In this document: in pieces, positions 7,603-19,274 of the stretch
How the letters are laid out: each line of letters starts with the position of its first letter
How positions within the stretch are numbered: position 1 is the first letter of the stretch
Assembly (NCBI RefSeq): GCF_036277275.1
Contig: NZ_DASUNH010000110.1
Coordinates: 2,014 to 66,013, forward strand
Source: Ideonella sp.
GTDB taxonomy: Bacteria; Pseudomonadota; Gammaproteobacteria; Burkholderiales; Burkholderiaceae_C
Length of the DNA: 64,000 bases
Direction: 5' to 3'
Program-made: the position numbers and the translations under genes
The notes under the pieces: model-generated
What the model was told of the DNA's origin: nothing
The model's input: the letters and a program-made list of their open reading frames with translations, nothing else
The model's database searches: none

Positions 7603-8724
7603 ATGAGGTCGGTCGGCTTCGTCGTCCCGCAAAGCATGCATTTCGCCGAGCCGTTGCCGCTGCGAAGTGGCGCGCAGCTTGCCGACTACACCCTGGTCTA
7701 CGAGACCTACGGCACGCTGAACGCCGATGCCAGCAATGCCGTGCTGGTGTGCCATGCGCTGAACGCGTCTCACCATGTGGCCGGCGATTACGCCGACAAA
7801 CCCAACAGCACCGGCTGGTGGGACAACCTCGTCGGCCCCGGCAAACCACTGGACACGGAGCGCTTCTTCGTCATCGGCGTCAACAACCCCGGTTCATGCT
7901 TCGGCTCGACCGGGCCGATGCACCCGAATCCGGCGACCGGCCGCCCCTATGGCGCCGACTTTCCAGTCGTGACGGTGGAGGATTGGGTCGACGCCCAAGC
8001 GCGACTGGTCTCGCGCCTGGGCATCCAGCAGCTGGCTGCGGTGGTCGGCGGCAGCCTCGGTGGCATGCAGGCGCTGGCCTGGACGCTGCGCCACACCGAT
8101 CGTGTGCGGCATTGCGTGGCGGTGGCCACTGCGCCGAACCTGTCGGCGCAGAACATCGCCTTCAACGAGGTGGCGCGGCGCGCGATCGTGACCGATCCCG
8201 ATTTCCACGGCGGCCATTTCTACGCCCACGGCGCGATCCCGAAGCGCGGCCTTCGCGTGGCCCGCATGATCGGCCACATCACCTACCTGAGCGACGACTC
8301 GATGGAGGCCAAGTTCGGCCGCGAGCTGCGCGAGGCCGAGCTGGGCTACAGCACGCAGGACATCGAGTTCCAGATCGAAAGCTACCTGCGTTACCAGGGC
8401 GACAAGTTCAGCGAGTATTTCGACGCCAACACCTACCTGCTGATCACCCGCGCACTGGACTACTTCGACCCGGCGCGTGCGCATGGCGATGACCTGACGG
8501 CAGCCTTCAAGGTGGCGCGCGACAAGAAGTTCCTCGTCGTCAGCTTCACCACCGACTGGCGCTTCTCGCCAGCACGCTCGCGTGAGATCGTCAAGGCACT
8601 GGTCGACAACCAAATCGAGGTCAGCTACGCCGAGATCGACGCGCCGCACGGCCACGATGCCTTCTTGCTCGAAGATCCGCGCTACCACGGCGTGATGCGG
8701 GCGTACTTCGAGCGGATCCTGTGA
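7603..8724 (+). CDS. metX: Homoserine O-acyltransferase (acetyl/succinyl)
   Basis: [17 protein letters not shown] nucleophile elbow, HGHDAFL. Confidence 0.95.
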
Positions 8725-8797
8725 CCCCCACGCTCGCCGCCGCTTCGCTGCCCCCCGAGGGGACCCTTGCAGCGGCCCGGCAAAGCCGGATCCGCGC
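8724..8797 (+). repeat. Short REP-like element related to the 189-bp repeats
   Basis: cccccacg start, ccccccgagggg hairpin and gcagcggcccggcaaagccggatccgcgca shared with 40588 and 42211. Confidence 0.7.
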
Positions 8798-8832
8798 AAG
8801 AACCTTGATCAAATTCGACCCCATCGATACGT

Positions 8833-9417
8833 ATGAGTGAGCGAAAAGACCTCGAAGTCATCGCCCGGCTGGTGCCGCAAGGCGCCCGCGTGCTCGACCT
8901 GGGCTGCGGCACGGGTGAGCTGTTGGCCTATCTGCGTGAGACGCGCGGCTGTTCGGGCTATGGCGTGGAGCTGGACGATGCCAACGTGCTGGCCTGCGCG
9001 CGGCGAGGCGTGAACGTGATCCAGCTCAACCTCGAAGAGGGGTTGAAGCTGTTCGAGGACCGCAGCTTCGACGTCGTGCTGCAGCTCGAAACCCTGCAGC
9101 ACCTTCGCAATACCGAGAACATGCTGCGCGAGACCGCTCGTGTTGGCCGCATCGGCATCGTCAGCTTCCCGAACTTCGCGCACTGGGTCAACCGCCTGTC
9201 GATCCTGCGCGGGCGCATGCCGGTGACGCGCGCGCTGCCGTATGAGTGGTACGACACGCCGAACATCCGCGTCGGCACCTACAAGGACTTCGAGGTGCTG
9301 GCGCGCAAGAATGGGCTCGAGGTGATCGACAGCTTCGGCCTGCAAAGCGGCGAGGTGATCCGCCGCTGGCCGAACCTGCGCGCCAGCGTGGCGGTGTTCA
9401 AGTTCGAACGCAGCTAG
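8833..9417 (+). CDS. metW: Methionine biosynthesis protein MetW (SAM-dependent methyltransferase fold)
   Basis: VLDLGCGTG, IVSFPNFAHW, WYDTPNI; follows metX. Confidence 0.93.
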   Translation: MSERKDLEVIARLVPQGARVLDLGCGTGELLAYLRETRGCSGYGVELDDANVLACARRGVNVIQLNLEEGLKLFEDRSFDVVLQLETLQHLRNTENMLRETARVGRIGIVSFPNFAHWVNRLSILRGRMPVTRALPYEWYDTPNIRVGTYKDFEVLARKNGLEVIDSFGLQSGEVIRRWPNLRASVAVFKFERS

Positions 9418-10412
9418 ACATCGGCCACCTCGGCCACGGGCTCGACGAGCACCGGCCGCGCGTGCAGGTAGGCCGTCGCCCGGCGCTTGGCTTCGATGTC
9501 GGTGTAGATGTGGGCCGCCTGCTCGGGGGTGAGCCCCAGTACCGGTGCCAGTTCGGTCGCTGACAGGCGGTGGTTGTGCGCCCACAGCGCCAGGTCCATC
9601 TGCTGGTAGGGCAGCGCGAAGTAGAACTCGTCCTGGCCTTGCGGCAGGCTGTAGGTGTCGGTGGTCGGGGTCGAGTGGCAGATGTCGTCGGGCAGGCCGA
9701 GGTGGCGCGCGAGCGCGTAGACCTGGGTCTTGTACAGGTGCGCGATCGGCTTCAGGTCGGCCGCGCCGTCGCCGTTCTTGACGAAAAAGCCCTGGTCGTA
9801 CTCGAGCCGGTTCGGCGTGCCGATCACGGCGTGGTGCAGGCGGTCGGCATGGCAGTACTCGAGCAGCTTGCGCACGCGCTGCTTGTGGTTGGTGGCGGCC
9901 ACCAGCGCCAGGTATTCGCGCGCCCGCAGTCGGGCCTGCTGCAATTCGCCCTCGGGCGACCGCACCACCAGGCGGAAGAAGTTCATCTGCCCGGCGCTGC
10001 CGCCGGCGATCGTGATCTTGTTTTTCCAGCCTTCGCCGTAGCCGGGGAACAGCGATCGGATCGCCGCGTCGCGTTGTGCATAGCAGCCCAGGGCCTGCAG
10101 CGCGGGGGCGATGTCCACCACCTCGTGCGCGATGTCGAGCTGCTGCGCCAGCATGCTGCCCAGCCGCACGCTGTCCGGCGACGAATCGCGCTCGGGCATC
10201 AGCAGGCCGAAGACCTTGCCAGGTCCCAACGCCTGCACCGCGAGCGCGGCGCAGACCGAGCTGTCGATGCCGCCGGACAGGCCGACGACGACGCCACGCC
10301 GGTGCAGCCGCTGCGCCACGGTGTTGCGCATCCAGCGCGTGATGCGGTCGACCTCGTCGGCGCAGTTCAGCGCCAGCCAGTCGCGGCCTTCAGGCAAGCT
10401 TGCGGCGTACAT
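9414..10412 (-). CDS. nadE: NH3-dependent NAD+ synthetase-like ATP pyrophosphatase (ACP-cluster subtype)
   Basis: PP-loop GLSGGIDSS, GTPNRLE, KPIAHLYKTQV; start uncertain (ATG 10412 overlaps the ACP end). Confidence 0.75.
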   Translation of the reverse strand: MYAASLPEGRDWLALNCADEVDRITRWMRNTVAQRLHRRGVVVGLSGGIDSSVCAALAVQALGPGKVFGLLMPERDSSPDSVRLGSMLAQQLDIAHEVVDIAPALQALGCYAQRDAAIRSLFPGYGEGWKNKITIAGGSAGQMNFFRLVVRSPEGELQQARLRAREYLALVAATNHKQRVRKLLEYCHADRLHHAVIGTPNRLEYDQGFFVKNGDGAADLKPIAHLYKTQVYALARHLGLPDDICHSTPTTDTYSLPQGQDEFYFALPYQQMDLALWAHNHRLSATELAPVLGLTPEQAAHIYTDIEAKRRATAYLHARPVLVEPVAEVADV

Positions 10413-10635
10413 AGGCGTCGATGCGGTCAAGGCTTTCAAAGTTCTCGGGCAACATTTCGGTCTCGTCGATGCTGAAGCCGCATTCGTCTTCGATGAAGGC
10501 GATCAGTTCGAGGAAACCGGTGGAGTCGACGATGCGGTGCTCGATCAGCGAATCGCCGTCGGCGAAGTTGCTGCCGCCCCCCATCAGGATGTAGTCCTCG
10601 ATGTAGCGACGCGTGAGCGCCTTGATGTCTTTCAA
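10390..10635 (-). CDS. Acyl carrier protein
   Basis: 81 aa, acidic, IVDSTGFLEL with the phosphopantetheine Ser, ENFESL tail. Confidence 0.88.
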   Translation of the reverse strand: MKDIKALTRRYIEDYILMGGGSNFADGDSLIEHRIVDSTGFLELIAFIEDECGFSIDETEMLPENFESLDRIDAYVRRKLA

Positions 10636-12182
10636 CGCAAGGTCCTTTCTGGGCTGGTGTCGTTGGGCGAGGCTGCGGCGGCGGCGAGCAGCCGCTTGCA
10701 GACCTTGCCGGAGTCGGTTTTGGGCAATGTGTCGACGAAGACCACACGCTGCGGCGCCATCCCGGCGTCGAGCTGGTCTTTGCAGTGGCGCACCACCTCG
10801 CGTTCGGTCAGCCGGCGACCGGGGCGCGGCGCCACCCAGGCGACGATGGCTTCGCCGAGCAGCGGGTCGGGCACGCCGGCGACGGCGGCTTCGAGCACGC
10901 TGTCCAGCGTGTACAGAACATCTTCGATGGCGCGCGGGCTGACCTTCTCACCGCGGCACTTGATGATGTCGTCGCGGCGACCGACGAAGTAGAGCCAGCC
11001 TTCATCGTCGGTGCGGAACAGGTCGCCGGTGTGCAGCACCTGCTCGCCGGGCAGCGGGCCGGGCCTGAGCGCTTGCGCGGTCAGATCGGGCCGGTTCCAG
11101 TAGCCACGCATCACGTGGCTGCCGCGGACCACGAGTTCGCCGGTGCGGCCCCAGGGTAGCCGCCGGCCGGCCTCGTCGACCAGCCAGTGATCCTGGTTCG
11201 GCATGCCTCGGCCGACGCTGCCGGGGCGGGCGTCGAGCTGGTCGGACGGCAGGTAGCTGATGCGCTTGCACTCGGTCATGCCGTACATCGGCACCAGCCG
11301 GGCCTGCGGCAGCAACGCGCGCAGGCGGCCGATGGTCTCGGGGCTCAGCCCGGTCGCGGCGTTGGTGACCAGGCGCAGTTCGGGCCAGTTGAACGTCGCG
11401 GCCTCTCTGAGCCCCAGCCAGAGCGCGAACGTCGTCGGCACCCCGGCGAAGACGCTGACCCGCTGCGTTGCCAGCGTCTGCAGCACCTTGACCGGGAAGG
11501 CGAACGAGCGTTCGAGCACGACGCTGGCGCCGACCTGGAAGGCCAGCAGCAGCTGGTACAGGCCGTAGCTGTAGGCCAGCGGCAGCAGGCCGGCCAGCAC
11601 GTCGTCGGGCCGCAGGTCCAGGTAGGCCTGCACCGATCGCGCGGCCGCGACCATGTTGGCGTGGCTCAGCATCACGCCCTTCGGTTCTCCGGTCGAGCCC
11701 GAGGTGTAGATCAGCGCGGCGAGGTCAAGATCGATCGTCGGCAGGGCGGTGAACGGCGCCCGAGTTGCATCGGCTGCGCAGGGCGCCGCATCCGGGTCGA
11801 CCCACAGGCAGCTGCGTAACGCGGTCAGGTTGTCGAGTGCGGCCTCCACGCGTGCGTGCACGCTGGGCTGGCTGACGAGCAGTCCGGCGCCCGCGTCGGC
11901 AAGCACCGCCTGCAGCCGGCTGGCGTGCGCCTGCGGCCCGATCGGTACCAGCACGGCGCCGCAGCGCCAGCAGGCCAGCATCGCCAGCACGAAGGCCACG
12001 CCGTTGTCCAGGCACACGGCGACGCGGTCGCCGCGCTGGATGCCCTGGTCTTGCATCCAGGCGGCCCAGCGCGTTGCGCGGCGGTCGAGTTCGCCGTAGG
12101 TGATGGGTTGGCCTTGGCACACGATCGCGGTCCGCCCGGGCCCGGCCGCGGCGCTCGCCTCGAACAGCTGGTGAATCAGCAT
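10632..12182 (-). CDS. AMP-forming acyl-CoA/acyl-ACP ligase (ANL family)
   Basis: YTSGSTGEPKG, YGMTE, TGD, GRRDDIIK, LPKTDSGK; overall pattern resembles exosortase/EPS-associated ligases. Confidence 0.9.
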   Translation of the reverse strand: MLIHQLFEASAAAGPGRTAIVCQGQPITYGELDRRATRWAAWMQDQGIQRGDRVAVCLDNGVAFVLAMLACWRCGAVLVPIGPQAHASRLQAVLADAGAGLLVSQPSVHARVEAALDNLTALRSCLWVDPDAAPCAADATRAPFTALPTIDLDLAALIYTSGSTGEPKGVMLSHANMVAAARSVQAYLDLRPDDVLAGLLPLAYSYGLYQLLLAFQVGASVVLERSFAFPVKVLQTLATQRVSVFAGVPTTFALWLGLREAATFNWPELRLVTNAATGLSPETIGRLRALLPQARLVPMYGMTECKRISYLPSDQLDARPGSVGRGMPNQDHWLVDEAGRRLPWGRTGELVVRGSHVMRGYWNRPDLTAQALRPGPLPGEQVLHTGDLFRTDDEGWLYFVGRRDDIIKCRGEKVSPRAIEDVLYTLDSVLEAAVAGVPDPLLGEAIVAWVAPRPGRRLTEREVVRHCKDQLDAGMAPQRVVFVDTLPKTDSGKVCKRLLAAAAASPNDTSPERTLR

Positions 12183-12188
12183 GGCGGC

Positions 12189-14141
12189 TCAGCCTGCCGT
12201 GGCGGCCGGCAACGGGCGGGCGCGCACGAAGAGCTCGTGCAGCCACATCGTCGACAGGATGCCGACGAAAGCCATGTTGTCGCCGAAGCCGGCAGCGCGC
12301 CCGGCCGCGCACTTGGCGAGCAGCCGTCGCACGGCGCCGGGATCGAACAGGCCCGCGTCGACCAGGCGCGATTCGCTCAGCAACTCGGCGCAGGCCTCGT
12401 CGGGCTGGCCGTTGGCGCCGAAGAAGCTGCTGCTGTCGGGGGTGCGGTAGGGCTGCTTGGCGCGCAGGCGGATCGACTCGGGCAACAGCCCCTTCATCGC
12501 GCGCTTGAGCAGGTATTTCTCCGTCAGCCCCATCAGCTTGTAGCGGGGCGGAAGGCGGTTGGCGAATTCGATCAGGCGATGGTCGAGGAAAGGGAAGCGC
12601 GCCTCGACCGATCCCGCCATCGCCATGCGGTCGCCTTGTGCGCCGAGCAGGTAGCCCGACATCAGCGTGTGCGCCTCGACATACTGGTCGCGGGCGAGCG
12701 GCGACCAGTGCTGCATCGTAGACGGCAGCGTGCGCTCGATCGTCTCGATCGGGTCGAAGCCGGCCACCGCGTCGCGCAGCGCCGGCGTGAAGAAGCGCGT
12801 GATGCGGCCGCTGGTCAGCCAGCGCGGCGCGTGGCCAAAGGTGGGCTGGACGGGCGAGCCGTTGCCGTCGCCGAAGTAGCGCTGCGCCAGCGCACCGCTG
12901 GCACCGGGCGATTGCGGCATCCACGGGTACAGGCGCTGCAGCAGCCGGCCACGCCAGCGTGACTGCGGCGCGCGTGCCATGAAGCGGCGCACCCGGGCTT
13001 CCTTGAACAGGTCGTAGCCGCCGAAGACCTCGTCGGCGCCTTCGCCGGTCAGTACCACCTTGACGCCATGCTCACGCACGCTGCGCGCCAGCAGCATCAT
13101 CGGCACCGGCGCCGTGCGCAGCAGCGGGGCCTCAGCATGCCAGACCGCCTTCGGGAAGCCCGCGGCGATGTCCGCGCGGCTGCAGCGCAGCTCGGTGTGC
13201 GGCGTGCCGAGATGGTCCACCAGCTCGCGCTGGTGCGAGCGCTCGTCGAACTCGTGCTCGTCGAAGGCGAGCGAGAAGCTGCGCAGCGGCGTGTCGGTGC
13301 AGCGGTGGATCAGTGTCGTGATCACCGACGAGTCCAGGCCGCCGCTGAGGTAGGCCCCCACCGGCACATCGGCGCGCAGTTGCAGGCGCACAGCGTCGAC
13401 CAAGCGCTCGCGCAGTTCGTCGGCCAGGTCTTCGGCCCGGCCGAGGTCTTCGGCGCCGTGGGGCGGGAACTCCCAGTCCCAGTAGCAGGTGGTCCGCTGC
13501 TGGCCACCGCCGACCCACATCAGGTGCCCGGGGGGCAACTGCTGCACGCCGTCGAACGCGGTCTGCGGCGCCAGCGGGGACCAGAACGTGAACGCTTCGG
13601 CGAGGCCTCGCGGGTCGAGGCGACGCGGCATTTCGGCGATGGCGAACAAGGCCTTGATTTCAGACGCGAACAGCAACCGACGGCCGACCCACGCGAAGTA
13701 CAGCGGCCGGATGCCGGCCCGGTCGCGCGCCAGCACGAGCCGGCGTCGCCGCACGTCCCACAGGGCGATTGCGAACTGGCCGTTCAGGTGCTCGACGAAG
13801 CGGTCGCCATGCAACGCGTACAGATGCAGGAGGACCTCGGTGTCCGAACGCGTACGAAAGCACCGGCCGGCCGCTTCGAGCGCAGCGCGCAGCTCGACGA
13901 AGTTGAAGATCTCGCCGTTGAAGACCACCTGCAGCAGGCCGTCGGCACTGGCCATCGGCTGGTGGCCGCCGGTCGGATCGATGATCGACAGCCGCGCGTG
14001 CGCGAGCCCGATCTCGCCCTGGCACCACATCCCCGTGTCGTCAGGGCCGCGGTGGTGAAGCTGGCCGATCATCGTCGCCAGCTGCGCGGCCGCGGGCGGG
14101 TGCGATCCATCGACCGAGAGGATGCCGGCAATGCCACACAT
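12189..14141 (-). CDS. asnB: Asparagine synthase (glutamine-hydrolysing)-family amidotransferase
   Basis: N-terminal MCGIAG (Ntn Cys), HRGPD, FNGEIFN, LSGGLDSS, GEGADEVFGGY, EARFPFLD. Confidence 0.92.
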   Translation of the reverse strand: MCGIAGILSVDGSHPPAAAQLATMIGQLHHRGPDDTGMWCQGEIGLAHARLSIIDPTGGHQPMASADGLLQVVFNGEIFNFVELRAALEAAGRCFRTRSDTEVLLHLYALHGDRFVEHLNGQFAIALWDVRRRRLVLARDRAGIRPLYFAWVGRRLLFASEIKALFAIAEMPRRLDPRGLAEAFTFWSPLAPQTAFDGVQQLPPGHLMWVGGGQQRTTCYWDWEFPPHGAEDLGRAEDLADELRERLVDAVRLQLRADVPVGAYLSGGLDSSVITTLIHRCTDTPLRSFSLAFDEHEFDERSHQRELVDHLGTPHTELRCSRADIAAGFPKAVWHAEAPLLRTAPVPMMLLARSVREHGVKVVLTGEGADEVFGGYDLFKEARVRRFMARAPQSRWRGRLLQRLYPWMPQSPGASGALAQRYFGDGNGSPVQPTFGHAPRWLTSGRITRFFTPALRDAVAGFDPIETIERTLPSTMQHWSPLARDQYVEAHTLMSGYLLGAQGDRMAMAGSVEARFPFLDHRLIEFANRLPPRYKLMGLTEKYLLKRAMKGLLPESIRLRAKQPYRTPDSSSFFGANGQPDEACAELLSESRLVDAGLFDPGAVRRLLAKCAAGRAAGFGDNMAFVGILSTMWLHELFVRARPLPAATAG

Positions 14142-14147
14142 CGCCGC

Positions 14148-14792
14148 TCAGACCCCGGCCGCGTTGGGCTCTTGTCGGCCGGCAGAGGCGGCGACGGCCA
14201 TGTCGCTGGCGGCCCCCACCACCGGGGCCGTGGCCGAAGCGCCTGCCGATGCCGCTGCCTTGGCCCGGTCGGCGCCGCTCGCGTAGGTCGACAGTGCGCG
14301 CGGCAGCACCTTGCACGGGGCCACCAGCACCACCGAGCCGGCCGGCACGTCGCGCGTCACGACGCAGTTGGCGCCGATCATCGCGCCGTCGCCGATCGTG
14401 ATGCCGCCGAGCACCCGGGCACCGACGTAGATGTCCACGTGGTGGCCGATCTTCGGCACGCCGGGGGTCGGGCCGGTGCCGATCGTCACGTCGTGGAAGA
14501 TCAGGCAGTCGTGCCCGATCTCGACGCCGCTGCCGATCATCACGTTGTGGGGGTGGATGAGCACCAGGCCCTTGCCGATCTGCGCGCCGCGCGGGCCGGC
14601 CCACAGGTGCACCTTGAAGGGCAGCAGCGGCAGCCGGGCGATGCGGTAGAGCAGCCACGCCGGCCAGCGCAGCAGGGGCTGGCGTTGCGCCGCCGCCCAC
14701 ATGCCGAAGCGGTAGACCGCGACGATCCAGAGGCCGGGGCCGGCCCAGCCTCCTTCGTGCCGTTCATGGTCACGCCGGATGTTGTCGAACAT
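14148..14792 (-). CDS. Serine O-acetyltransferase-like hexapeptide (LbH) acetyltransferase
   Basis: Hexapeptide repeats IGSGVEIGHDCLIFHDVTIG, PKIGHHVDIYVGARVLG, IGANCVV; short form with a low-complexity Ala tail; start 14792 or 14810. Confidence 0.8.
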   Translation of the reverse strand: MFDNIRRDHERHEGGWAGPGLWIVAVYRFGMWAAAQRQPLLRWPAWLLYRIARLPLLPFKVHLWAGPRGAQIGKGLVLIHPHNVMIGSGVEIGHDCLIFHDVTIGTGPTPGVPKIGHHVDIYVGARVLGGITIGDGAMIGANCVVTRDVPAGSVVLVAPCKVLPRALSTYASGADRAKAAASAGASATAPVVGAASDMAVAASAGRQEPNAAGV

Positions 14793-15055
14793 GGGCTGAC
14801 TGCCCTCCATCAGAAATTCTTGTCTGCGCGCACCGTTCGCCGATGCCGCTCGGCCGCCGACAGCATCGCCGCCATGGGCCGGGCGACCCATGATCTCGGT
14901 CAAGGTGTTGGTTCGCGCGCAGGCCCGGCGGGGCGCAAGAGCGGCATTTCGCCATGCCCGACGCGCCGCGCCGGCGGCGGGCCGCCGGAATGCGGGGCCT
15001 TGCGGGCCGGCTCAGGCGATGCAAGCGCGCGGCGCCGCGGCGTGGGGAGCAGGGC

Positions 15056-16270
15056 TCAACCGACGACGCGGCCGCGGCCGCCGCGCTTGGCGTCGTACAG
15101 GGCCTGGTCGGCGCGCGCCAACAGGCAGGGCAGCGTTTCGTCGTCTTGCCATTGCGCCACACCCAGGCTGATGCCGACCGTGCCACCATGCGGGTAAGGC
15201 TCGCGTTGCAGCGTGACGTGCAGCGTGGCGCAGAGCTGGCGTGCCTGGTCGAGCGAGGCATCGGGAAGCAGCAGCGCGAACTCGTCGCCGCCCAGGCGGC
15301 CCAGCAGGTCGGACCCGCGCACGCGCGCATGCACCCGCCGCACCAGCTCACGCAGCACTGCGTCGCCAGCGGCATGGCCGTGCTCGTCATTGATCTGCTT
15401 GAAGCGGTCCACGTCGAGCATCGCCAGTGACAGCTGCTCGCCATCCACCCGGGCACGCATCAACGCCGCTTCGGCGGCTTCGAGAAATCCGCGCCGATTG
15501 ATCGCCTGGGTCAGCTCGTCCTCGCGGGCCTGGCGGTGCAGCTCGCCGTGGTGGCTGGCGATCGGGTTCAGCAGCACGCGGCGCAGCATCGCGTTCAGCG
15601 TCAGGAAGACGGCGAGCACCACCGCGCAGGCGCCGATCAGGAATTGCCACAGCGACTGCTGCGCACGTTCCAGCGGCACCGTCATCGGCAAGGAGACGAC
15701 CTGCGCGCCGACGGTCTCGCCCATGTGCCAGCCGAAACCGCGTTGGTCGCCGTACAGCGCACGCATGGCGCTCGGCGCGGCCTCCGGCGCGCCGTGGCAG
15801 GCCAGGCAGGCGGCGTCGCTGACGCGCAGCGGCTTGGCCACGTAAAGCATTTCCTGGCCGTTTTCGAACGTCTGGCGCTGTATGGTGTCGACCCCGCTGT
15901 TGCGCAGGGTCTGCACCATGTCGGCGTGGATGCCGGTGGCACGGTTGGCCGGATTGGTCGGGTTCAGGGCCACCTCGCGGTAGCTGACGCCCGGGTAGCG
16001 GCGGTGCAGCTCGTGCATCGCGGTTGTCGCGGCAAACGAGGGCACCGAGGCAACTTCGAAGTGGGCCGGGTCCTTGTTCAACAGCGGCCGCACGTGTTCG
16101 GCGGTATAGCTGCGCAGCGCGGTGGCGGCCTCCATGTGCAGCTCGGCTTCGCGTTGTACCTCGGCCAGCGCACGCTCACGAAGCTGACCGCGCATATACA
16201 GCCCGGCCAACAGCACGGCCGATACGGCGCAGGCGCCGAGGGCGAGGTTGAGTCGGGTCTTCAGGTTCAT
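15056..16270 (-). CDS. Diguanylate cyclase with periplasmic Tll0287/DUF3365-like heme c sensor
   Basis: Two TMs flank a domain with YREVALNPTNPAN and CLACH; intact GGDEF with RxxD I-site (RGSD); start MNLKTR at 16270. Confidence 0.88.
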   Translation of the reverse strand: MNLKTRLNLALGACAVSAVLLAGLYMRGQLRERALAEVQREAELHMEAATALRSYTAEHVRPLLNKDPAHFEVASVPSFAATTAMHELHRRYPGVSYREVALNPTNPANRATGIHADMVQTLRNSGVDTIQRQTFENGQEMLYVAKPLRVSDAACLACHGAPEAAPSAMRALYGDQRGFGWHMGETVGAQVVSLPMTVPLERAQQSLWQFLIGACAVVLAVFLTLNAMLRRVLLNPIASHHGELHRQAREDELTQAINRRGFLEAAEAALMRARVDGEQLSLAMLDVDRFKQINDEHGHAAGDAVLRELVRRVHARVRGSDLLGRLGGDEFALLLPDASLDQARQLCATLHVTLQREPYPHGGTVGISLGVAQWQDDETLPCLLARADQALYDAKRGGRGRVVG

Positions 16271-18428: not shown

Positions 18429-19274
18429 TCAGCTCTTCTCGAGCGGTGCCAGCGGCTCGAACGCCGCCGGCTGCTTGAGCTTCCAGGCCGTGATCGCCTT
18501 TTCCATCTCGCCGATGTCGAAGATCGCGCTTTGCAGCAGCGTCATCTGCGACAGCGCCTCGGCGGTGCCGTGGTCACGCGCCTGGTTCAGCGCCAGCTTG
18601 CTGCCGGCGATCGCCAGCGGGCTCTTGGCAGCGATCTGGGCGGCCAGCTCGTTGGCATGCAACAGCAGCGCGTCGGCGTCCGGCAGCACGGCGTTGACCA
18701 GGCCGATCGTCAGCGCGCGCTCGGCGTCGACCCGCTCGCCGGTGTAGGCCATCTGCCGCGCCATGCCCTGCGGCACGAGCTTCGGCAGCCGCTGCAGCGA
18801 GCCCAGGTCGGCCACCATGCCGATGTGGATCTCCTGCACGGTGAAGAACGCGTCGGTCGTACACAGCCGGATGTCGCAGGCGGCGGCCAGGTCCAGCGCG
18901 CCGCCGATGCAGCCGCCCTGCACCGCGCAGATGACCGGGAAGCGCGCTTCGTCGATCGCGTCGAAGCAGGCCATCAGGCGACGCAGCCCGGTCTGGAAGG
19001 CCTGGCGCTTGCGCGAGGTCGACAGGTCCAGCATCGGCATATTGGCGCCGGCGAACACATCGAGCGCCATGCCGGCCGAGAAATGCTTGCCGGTCGAGGC
19101 GATCACCAGCACGCGCGTCTGGCCGGCATCGTCGAGCTCGCGGATGGCGTCTCGAAGGGCCGGGAAGAAGCCCGGATCCATCGTGTTCATCCGCTCGGGG
19201 CGGTTCAGCGTCAGCCGGGCGACCCCGGTGGCGCTGTCATGCTGCAGGTCGAAGTAGGTTGGGGGAGTGGTCAT
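18429..19274 (-). CDS. Enoyl-CoA hydratase/isomerase family protein
   Basis: FSAGMAL, VQGGCIGGALDL, EIHIGMVADLG crotonase motifs. Confidence 0.9.
   Translation of the reverse strand: MTTPPTYFDLQHDSATGVARLTLNRPERMNTMDPGFFPALRDAIRELDDAGQTRVLVIASTGKHFSAGMALDVFAGANMPMLDLSTSRKRQAFQTGLRRLMACFDAIDEARFPVICAVQGGCIGGALDLAAACDIRLCTTDAFFTVQEIHIGMVADLGSLQRLPKLVPQGMARQMAYTGERVDAERALTIGLVNAVLPDADALLLHANELAAQIAAKSPLAIAGSKLALNQARDHGTAEALSQMTLLQSAIFDIGEMEKAITAWKLKQPAAFEPLAPLEKS

Follow-up and report, generated by a model that had tools for sequence, protein, structure and literature searches.

A carrier-protein operon with NadE-like and AsnB-like enzymes beside metW in Ideonella sp.: a candidate pathway to an amide-bearing acyl unit

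Why would a bacterium keep genes resembling those for NAD synthetase (nadE) and asparagine synthetase (asnB) in one operon with a free-standing ligase and a small carrier protein? The question is raised by a five-gene cassette next to metW in Ideonella sp. (Burkholderiales), on contig NZ_DASUNH010000110.1 of assembly GCF_036277275.1. The window analysed is the whole stretch of 64,000 nucleotides (nt) from position 2,014 to 66,013 of the forward strand of this contig, and coordinates are those of the window unless a locus is named. An earlier note on this DNA proposed that the cassette does not serve housekeeping synthesis of nicotinamide adenine dinucleotide (NAD) or asparagine, and our analysis supports that proposal. 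The operon is not for housekeeping synthesis of either compound, because the genome has additional canonical NadE genes, the NadE-like gene is patchily distributed, the genus is poor in AsnB and the site is empty in the nearest relative. It belongs to a known, widespread operon type. On balance, we favour the interpretation that the module uses its carrier protein to build an acyl unit bearing an amide, in a pathway separate from the synthesis of NAD and asparagine; the step-by-step order proposed below is held with clearly less confidence.

The cassette comprises the following features, given from its first gene to its last (aa, amino acids).

14148..14792, minus strand: hexapeptide-repeat (left-handed beta-helix) acyltransferase, 214 aa (Pfam Hexapep, E=1.2e-8)
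12189..14141, minus strand: AsnB-family glutamine-hydrolysing amidotransferase, 650 aa (Asn_synthase, E=5e-98; GATase_7, E=7e-45)
10632..12182, minus strand: stand-alone adenylate-forming ligase, 516 aa, the predicted carrier loader (AMP-binding, E=5e-89, plus AMP-binding_C)
10390..10635, minus strand: carrier protein, 81 aa, with a TTG start overlapping the ligase stop and a predicted phosphopantetheine site at Ser38 (D37-S38-T39-G40)
9414..10412, minus strand: NadE-like PP-loop ATP pyrophosphatase, 332 aa, subfamily NF002048/PRK00876 (NAD_synthase, E=8e-50, matched in two stretches)
9918..10049, minus strand: family-specific insertion in the NadE-like protein, approximately residues 122-165 (~45 aa), a predicted three-stranded beta-sheet

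The operon and its conservation across phyla

The five genes are co-oriented and near-contiguous on the minus strand, between metW and a gene for a GGDEF diguanylate cyclase. Read 5' to 3', the first three are separated by 6 nt and 6 nt, the ligase and carrier genes share a TTGA start/stop overlap, and the carrier and NadE-like genes overlap by 23 nt. The tight packing and overlap described in the earlier note are thus confirmed at these coordinates.

We compared 83 NadE-like loci from at least five phyla, with representatives from Beta-, Gamma- and Alphaproteobacteria, Myxococcota, Acidobacteriota, Gemmatimonadota and others. The NadE-like gene is adjacent to a ligase gene in 74 of these, to a carrier gene in 71 and to an AsnB gene in 53, and the misses fall mostly at contig ends. 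Two gene orders occur, AsnB-ligase-carrier-NadE and AsnB-carrier-ligase-NadE. Thus, we conclude that selection, rather than shared ancestry of a single arrangement, holds these genes together. Gene order, the lack of which was to count against the proposal, is kept in Beta-, Gamma- and Alphaproteobacteria, Myxococcota and Acidobacteriota. The constant core of the module is the carrier, its adenylating ligase and the NadE-like enzyme; the AsnB-like enzyme is a usual companion, and one of several acyltransferases is added. The NadE-like gene is the most conserved, defining gene of the module.

Homologues of the NadE-like protein number at least 8000, the best 120 of which are 63-93% identical to it, and a scan of one genome per species confirmed at least 591. 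Identity to homologues in several phyla ranges from 60 to 93%. Occurrence is patchy: the gene is present in 9 of 400 evenly sampled genomes of the phylum, and it was not found in 24 genomes of the same genus and 16 of the same order. Among 14 control genomes, only that of Methanosarcina acetivorans has a match above the NF002048 cut-off, and the subfamily thus also occurs in an archaeon.

An operon of this type is known from pSymB of Sinorhizobium meliloti, where it reads asnB-SMb20651 (acyl carrier protein, ACP)-SMb20650 (ligase)-nadE1 (Ramos-Vega et al., 2009, Microbiology 155:257; PMC7232532). According to a later summary from the same laboratory, the ligase and ACP genes are co-transcribed, SMb20651 is converted to its holo form by AcpS, co-expression of SMb20650 yields acylated holo-SMb20651 in E. 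coli, and SMb20650 cannot replace FadD for oleate (PMC7232532). The function of the operon was still called open as of 2017 (PMC5686131). The same four core genes are adjacent and co-oriented there, with identities of 57% for the NadE-like protein, 46% for the ligase, 45% for the carrier and 48-49% for AsnB (tblastn, locus L110). The S. meliloti operon differs in that the carrier gene precedes the ligase gene, whereas the ligase gene comes first here; it also lacks a hexapeptide acyltransferase, and it is located on a megaplasmid rather than at the metW site. The cassette, in which the earlier note saw an uncharacterised pathway, is thus of an operon type already described in S. meliloti, where the ligase-carrier step was shown. 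In S. meliloti strain ml46, the pSymB asnB homologue upstream of the ACP gene (L110:4156-6052) is in two frames that meet at ~4960, and no coding sequence is listed; this is either a frameshifted pseudogene or a sequencing error. Literature searches on the gene combination, on PEP-CTERM together with NAD synthetase and on floc-formation clusters found nothing on the cassette, and the NadE-family papers found do not mention an NF002048-type paralogue.

Taken singly, the genes receive ordinary curated names (TIGR01536, asparagine synthase; TIGR00552, nadE), as would be expected of chance neighbours that share no pathway, namely a housekeeping asparagine synthetase, a CoA ligase for fatty acids and surplus copies of an ACP and an NAD synthetase. 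We consider such chance proximity highly improbable, given that several phyla maintain the block, in either of two gene orders, that its reading frames overlap and that the genus is largely without AsnB. The S. meliloti ligase, moreover, is no substitute for FadD, yet it charges its neighbouring carrier (PMC7232532).

The NadE-like enzyme and the question of NAD synthesis

The NadE-like protein is a single domain without a glutaminase, with its PP-loop (SGGIDS) at residues 46-51. It scores 490 bits against the subfamily model NF002048 (cut-off 313), covering model positions 9-327 of 330, and also exceeds the cut-off of the domain-level model TIGR00552 nadE (157 bits; cut-off 63.65). It falls below the full-length NadE equivalogs NF010587 (170.7 bits; cut-off 255), NF001979 (94.7; cut-off 250) and NF010588 (84.1; cut-off 479). 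Other contigs of this genome encode two canonical glutamine-dependent NadE proteins, whose scores with NF010588 are 786 and 589 bits. The NadE-like enzyme is thus not the only NAD synthetase of the genome, a circumstance that the earlier note had named as telling against its own reading. A long branch separates it in the tree from the canonical NadE genes of the same genome. Canonical NadE is also present in all 10 further genomes with the NadE-like gene that were checked (11 of 11 including this one).

The AlphaFold model (mean predicted local distance difference test, pLDDT, 87.5) has the standard NadE fold with an attached insertion. The top Foldseek matches of this model are 2e18, 1xng and 3fiu, each with probability 1.00 and with target-normalised TM-scores of 0.82-0.88. 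The insertion had been put at about 50 aa; it is real, and we place it at ~45 aa on the basis of an alignment gap, invariant residues and modelled strands. Alignment to P. horikoshii 2e18 and Francisella 3fiu leaves a gap at this place, and residues 107-174 of the NadE-like protein stand where P. horikoshii NadE has ~16 residues. The predicted strands cover residues 130-136, 145-151 and 157-162, with pLDDT of 80-95 for the block, and W129, K132, G155 and Y167 of the insertion region are invariant in 50 homologues. We take the insertion to lie in the region that forms the dimer interface and nicotinic acid adenine dinucleotide (NaAD) site of canonical enzymes. One homologue from a metagenome (P0008, 405 aa) has an internal duplication of ~75 residues. 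We rejected it as a NadE/carrier fusion; the duplication is most likely an assembly artefact.

With NH3-dependent NAD+ synthetase NadE (EC 6.3.1.5; P. horikoshii 2e18, H. pylori 1xng and B. subtilis 1nsy) and the nicotinamide mononucleotide (NMN) synthetase of Francisella (3fiu), the NadE-like protein shares the fold, the SGGxDS PP-loop and the GFF-K-GDG-AD motif. It differs from them in being only 16-25% identical, in its three-stranded insertion, in a T to V change in the FFTK motif, in being supernumerary and in its linkage to a ligase and a carrier.

The main rival to a carrier-linked amidation is that the NadE-like enzyme is a paralogue with true NH3-dependent NAD (or NMN) synthetase activity, co-expressed with the carrier pathway, in which AsnB alone would amidate; a possible reason would be that the pathway uses up NAD or a unit derived from nicotinate or another pyridine carboxylate. 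Several observations point this way and weigh against the interpretation that we favour. All structural neighbours of the protein are NAD or NMN synthetases, its score is well above the TIGR00552 cut-off, and every source names it NAD(+) synthase. The PP-loop and the FF-K-GDG-AD motif are conserved. Residues N133, R137, Y144, F167, F168, K170 and D173 of B. subtilis NadE, presumably catalytic or in contact with NaAD, correspond to the identical residues N175, R179, Y186, F209, F210, K212 and D215. The very high conservation across phyla (60-70% identity between phyla) would also suit an enzyme that makes a universal metabolite. Finally, at four loci with full flanks the NadE-like gene occurs among housekeeping genes (PFK, Pta-AckA, IspG) without ligase or carrier.

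Even so, we judge an NAD or NMN synthetase paralogue unlikely. The gene is an extra copy beside canonical NadE in 11 of 11 genomes, and ligase and carrier adjoin it in ~90% of loci, which makes them more constant partners than AsnB. All three NadE equivalog cut-offs are missed by wide margins, and the 45-aa insertion is an invariant feature in what we take to be the dimer/NaAD-site region. In addition, T169 of the FFTK motif (B. subtilis numbering) is replaced by an invariant Val, the sole change among the positions compared. The four unlinked copies nest within the linked family in the tree, and their genomes retain canonical NadE.

A more specific idea, which we advance only tentatively, is that NF002048 enzymes are not NAD synthetases but would be the first PP-loop amidases known to act on carrier-tethered acyl groups, with the insertion as a docking surface for the carrier and its phosphopantetheine arm. 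Were this so, the subfamily would provide a new route to carboxamides and, with a HemK-like partner, to N-methyl-carboxamides as substituents of exopolysaccharides or small metabolites. Thousands of database proteins of the subfamily are named "NAD(+) synthase", and action on carrier-bound acids would mean that a large annotation error could be corrected. The 17-year-old question of the cargo of SMb20651 would become directly testable, and a new decoration chemistry would be defined for exosortase-type exopolysaccharides, as found in flocs and biofilm matrix.

Partner enzymes and the proposed pathway

The best-scoring named model for the ligase is TIGR03098 (XrtA acyl-CoA ligase), at 413.3 bits, below the cut-off of 592.35. 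Its best solved relatives are adenylation domains of nonribosomal peptide synthetases (LgrA), VinN (3wvn) and malonyl-CoA synthetase. Because the position of the alpha-amino-binding Asp of such adenylation domains is occupied by Ser or Gly in the ligase (alignment to LgrA), we infer that the substrate is probably an acid other than an alpha-amino acid.

The carrier protein on its own has no match to Pfam PP-binding. It matches stand-alone type II peptidyl carrier proteins in the PDB, namely 2my5 (E=5e-9) and PltL, with the Ser aligned. The intact DS motif reported in the earlier note is borne out (D37-S38): across 70 homologues from related loci, DSTG keeps its D, S and G in all 70 and its T in 65. 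The pairing of a free-standing ligase with the small free-standing carrier that it charges resembles VinN/VinL (vicenistatin), PltF/PltL, DltA/DltC and AlmE/AlmF, and it is these ligase-carrier systems that supply the best solved relatives of both proteins. Unlike them, the cassette lacks a condensation, ketosynthase, MBOAT (DltB) or AlmG partner and instead encodes two ATP-dependent amidating enzymes; the alpha-amino-binding Asp is also not conserved in its ligase. We searched the cassette and its flanks for the membrane components of a Dlt-type system and found neither an MBOAT transferase DltB nor DltD. The sole transferase is the soluble hexapeptide enzyme.

The AsnB-like protein begins with MCG, so that the glutaminase Cys is intact, and it scores above the cut-off of TIGR01536 (asparagine synthase; 498 bits, cut-off 267). 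The second-best named model is the XrtA amidotransferase TIGR03108 (442.8 bits, below the cut-off of 816.9), and the model TIGR03104, for the amidotransferase of N-acetylglutaminylglutamine amide (NAGGN) synthesis, gives 373 bits, also below its cut-off. The best solved relative is 7ylz (TsnB9, a carboxylic-acid hydroxyamidotransferase; E=7.5e-62). Residues D384 and R387 of E. coli AsnB, which we take to bind aspartate, are replaced by G and Q (alignment to 1ct9), whereas human ASNS retains D and R in the same block. Enzymes of the AsnB family act on carboxylates other than aspartate in several pathways: TsnB9 (trichostatin hydroxamate), OxyD (malonamate starter), WbpS-type enzymes (uronamide) and AsnO (NAGGN). 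The AsnB-like protein shares with these a glutamine-hydrolysing domain with an N-terminal Cys and an adenylating synthetase domain. The match is at the family level (~30-40% over the N-terminal 390 residues), and they lack a NadE-like partner.

A separate canonical asnB was not found, as the AsnB-like gene is the sole PF00733 gene in this genome. The genus mostly has none, however: an AsnB-family gene occurs in only 5 of 33 genomes, and the other 28 are without any. Thus, the genus does not depend on AsnB for asparagine.

The hexapeptide acyltransferase starts with an ATG at 14792, preceded by a GGAGGG ribosome-binding site. Its nearest named models are EpsC/CysE-type serine O-acetyltransferases, and as it falls below both cut-offs (NCBIfam EpsC, 92.9 bits, cut-off 150; CysE, 80.9 bits, cut-off 210) it has no named equivalog. 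The gene travels with the cassette in two other genomes of the genus (G043 and G056; 70-80% identity) and in locus L011 (59%). Elsewhere the slot holds a different gene, for a GNAT-like protein of 350 aa whose GNAT matches are weak (26 loci) or for a FabH-like protein (6 loci). The acetyltransferase named in the earlier note is thus present here, but it is not conserved across the module, in which at least three types of acyltransferase, this one included, alternate.

In the pathway that we propose, the ligase would adenylate a small carboxylic acid that has no free alpha-amino group; a di- or polycarboxylate would be the simplest choice. It would then attach the acid by a thioester bond to the phosphopantetheine of Ser38 in the carrier, a loading step demonstrated with the homologous S. 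meliloti proteins. The NadE-like enzyme, judging by the chemistry of its family and by gene linkage, may next adenylate a carboxylate that is still free on the carrier-bound molecule or on a close relative of it, and ammonia would convert that group to a carboxamide. The AsnB-like enzyme could carry out another amidation, this one dependent on glutamine, with either the same intermediate or the acceptor as its target. The hexapeptide acyltransferase may either acetylate the intermediate or unload the carrier by passing the completed acyl group to an acceptor. There is precedent for the latter in LpxA and LpxD, which transfer acyl groups from acyl-ACP to an acceptor. The product would be an amide-bearing acyl group that in many genomes is probably joined to an exosortase-type exopolysaccharide.

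Also to be set against this scheme are two points about the partners. The hexapeptide enzyme looks closer to acetyl-CoA-dependent O-acetyltransferases than to enzymes that use acyl-ACP. AsnB is absent from ~12 loci with complete flanks, and a fixed scheme of two amidations therefore cannot be general.

A further gene fits a carboxamide product. In 22 loci, a methyltransferase gene of the HemK/PrmC family is attached to the module after the NadE-like gene, and all 5 genomes checked have it in addition to PrmC and PrmB, as a third paralogue. HemK/PrmC is a family of amide-N methyltransferases, and it is the presence of such a paralogue that fits. The motif of the module protein is NPPY in some lineages (L026) and LPPY in the Thiomonas-type copy (L036:9592-10563); loss of the Asn from NPPY would be unusual for an amide or amine N-methyltransferase.

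Many related loci are located in XrtA-type exopolysaccharide clusters, with genes for a deacetylase, FemAB-like, Wzy-like, GT4 and Wzz proteins and export, and many others stand alone. One example of a neighbour is an XrtA system deacetylase (TIGR03006, 400 bits; cut-off 276). In the cassette itself, the likeness to XrtA/PEP-CTERM accessory proteins consists of the sub-cut-off matches of the ligase and the AsnB-like protein to TIGR03098 and TIGR03108. The link to exopolysaccharide and exosortase loci drawn in the earlier note is therefore real for many related loci, but no exosortase or exopolysaccharide gene adjoins the cassette here. The best XrtA-like match in the genome reaches 139 bits (cut-off 208) and is on another contig (C141).

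The stand-alone loci raise the alternative that the end product is a small N-acylated amide that stays free, for example as an osmolyte or signal, and is not a decoration for a polymer; the acyltransferase would cap the molecule and hydrolysis would release it from the carrier. The logic would be like that of N-acetylglutaminylglutamine amide, which is made by a GNAT enzyme and an AsnB-type amidotransferase. In this genome, as on pSymB of S. meliloti and in numerous Burkholderiales, the cassette is on its own, and neither a glycosyltransferase nor a flippase or membrane transferase is encoded close by; its acyltransferases are of types that use acetyl-CoA (hexapeptide, GNAT), and the AsnB-like protein has some similarity to the TIGR03104 model, although below its cut-off. 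We nonetheless give a free metabolite a low probability, in view of the many copies embedded in XrtA-type exopolysaccharide clusters and because neither a thioesterase nor an exporter is conserved with the module in the loci compared.

The variable site next to metW

The earlier note took the abutment of the cassette on metW as consistent with an inserted module. Two features outside the five genes are needed here.

8833-9417, plus strand: metW
14793..15055, minus strand: non-coding leader, 263 nt, from the stop of the GGDEF gene to the start of the acyltransferase gene; part of the block absent from the nearest relative (empty-site comparison)

As that note had described, the cassette abuts metW with overlapping stops: the two genes are convergent, and the stop codons of metW and the NadE-like gene share the sequence CTAG. 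In the closest relative, in which metX-metW DNA is 93% identical, the stop of the GGDEF gene is 21 nt from the stop of metW and a block of 5.6 kb is absent. Two more relatives have the same cassette-free arrangement of metW and GGDEF gene, and a fourth is without both the cassette and the GGDEF gene. Three other genomes of the genus have the cassette, including the hexapeptide gene, in roughly this position, each arranged differently. In one assembly it lies against metW as here, with a NadE-like protein 93% identical; in G056 it lies against metW without the GGDEF and AraC genes, and in G043 it lies beyond the GGDEF gene. The four NadE-like copies from the genus form one supported clade within a mainly Burkholderiales group.

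The cassette is an accessory block at a variable locus, and this much of the insertion idea stands: in the nearest relative and two others, metW is directly beside the GGDEF gene. A recent insertion, however, explains the pattern no better than an old one, and old acquisition with repeated loss and rearrangement fits at least as well. We rejected a single recent insertion, as the copies within the genus are monophyletic and occupy the same spot in three arrangements. No direct or inverted flanking repeats above chance and no integrase were found at the cassette borders. More generally, the stretch from metW to a gene for a 281-aa protein (18429-19274) is variable in the genus, and contains GGDEF and AraC genes, the GGDEF gene and the cassette, the cassette alone, or nothing.

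Neighbours of the cassette in the window are metX-metW, the GGDEF cyclase gene and a gene for an AraC regulator. A search of positions 9300-15200 found no sigma-70-like promoter and no intrinsic terminator, and transcriptional read-through from the upstream, co-oriented GGDEF gene is thus possible. The trait is patchily distributed, and in this genome it occupies a variable position in the chromosome beside a gene for a c-di-GMP cyclase. The spacer between metX and metW (8720-8810) holds a dispersed repeat of 80-90 nt, copies of which, at 82-93% identity, occur on many contigs, both in this genome and in most others of the genus.

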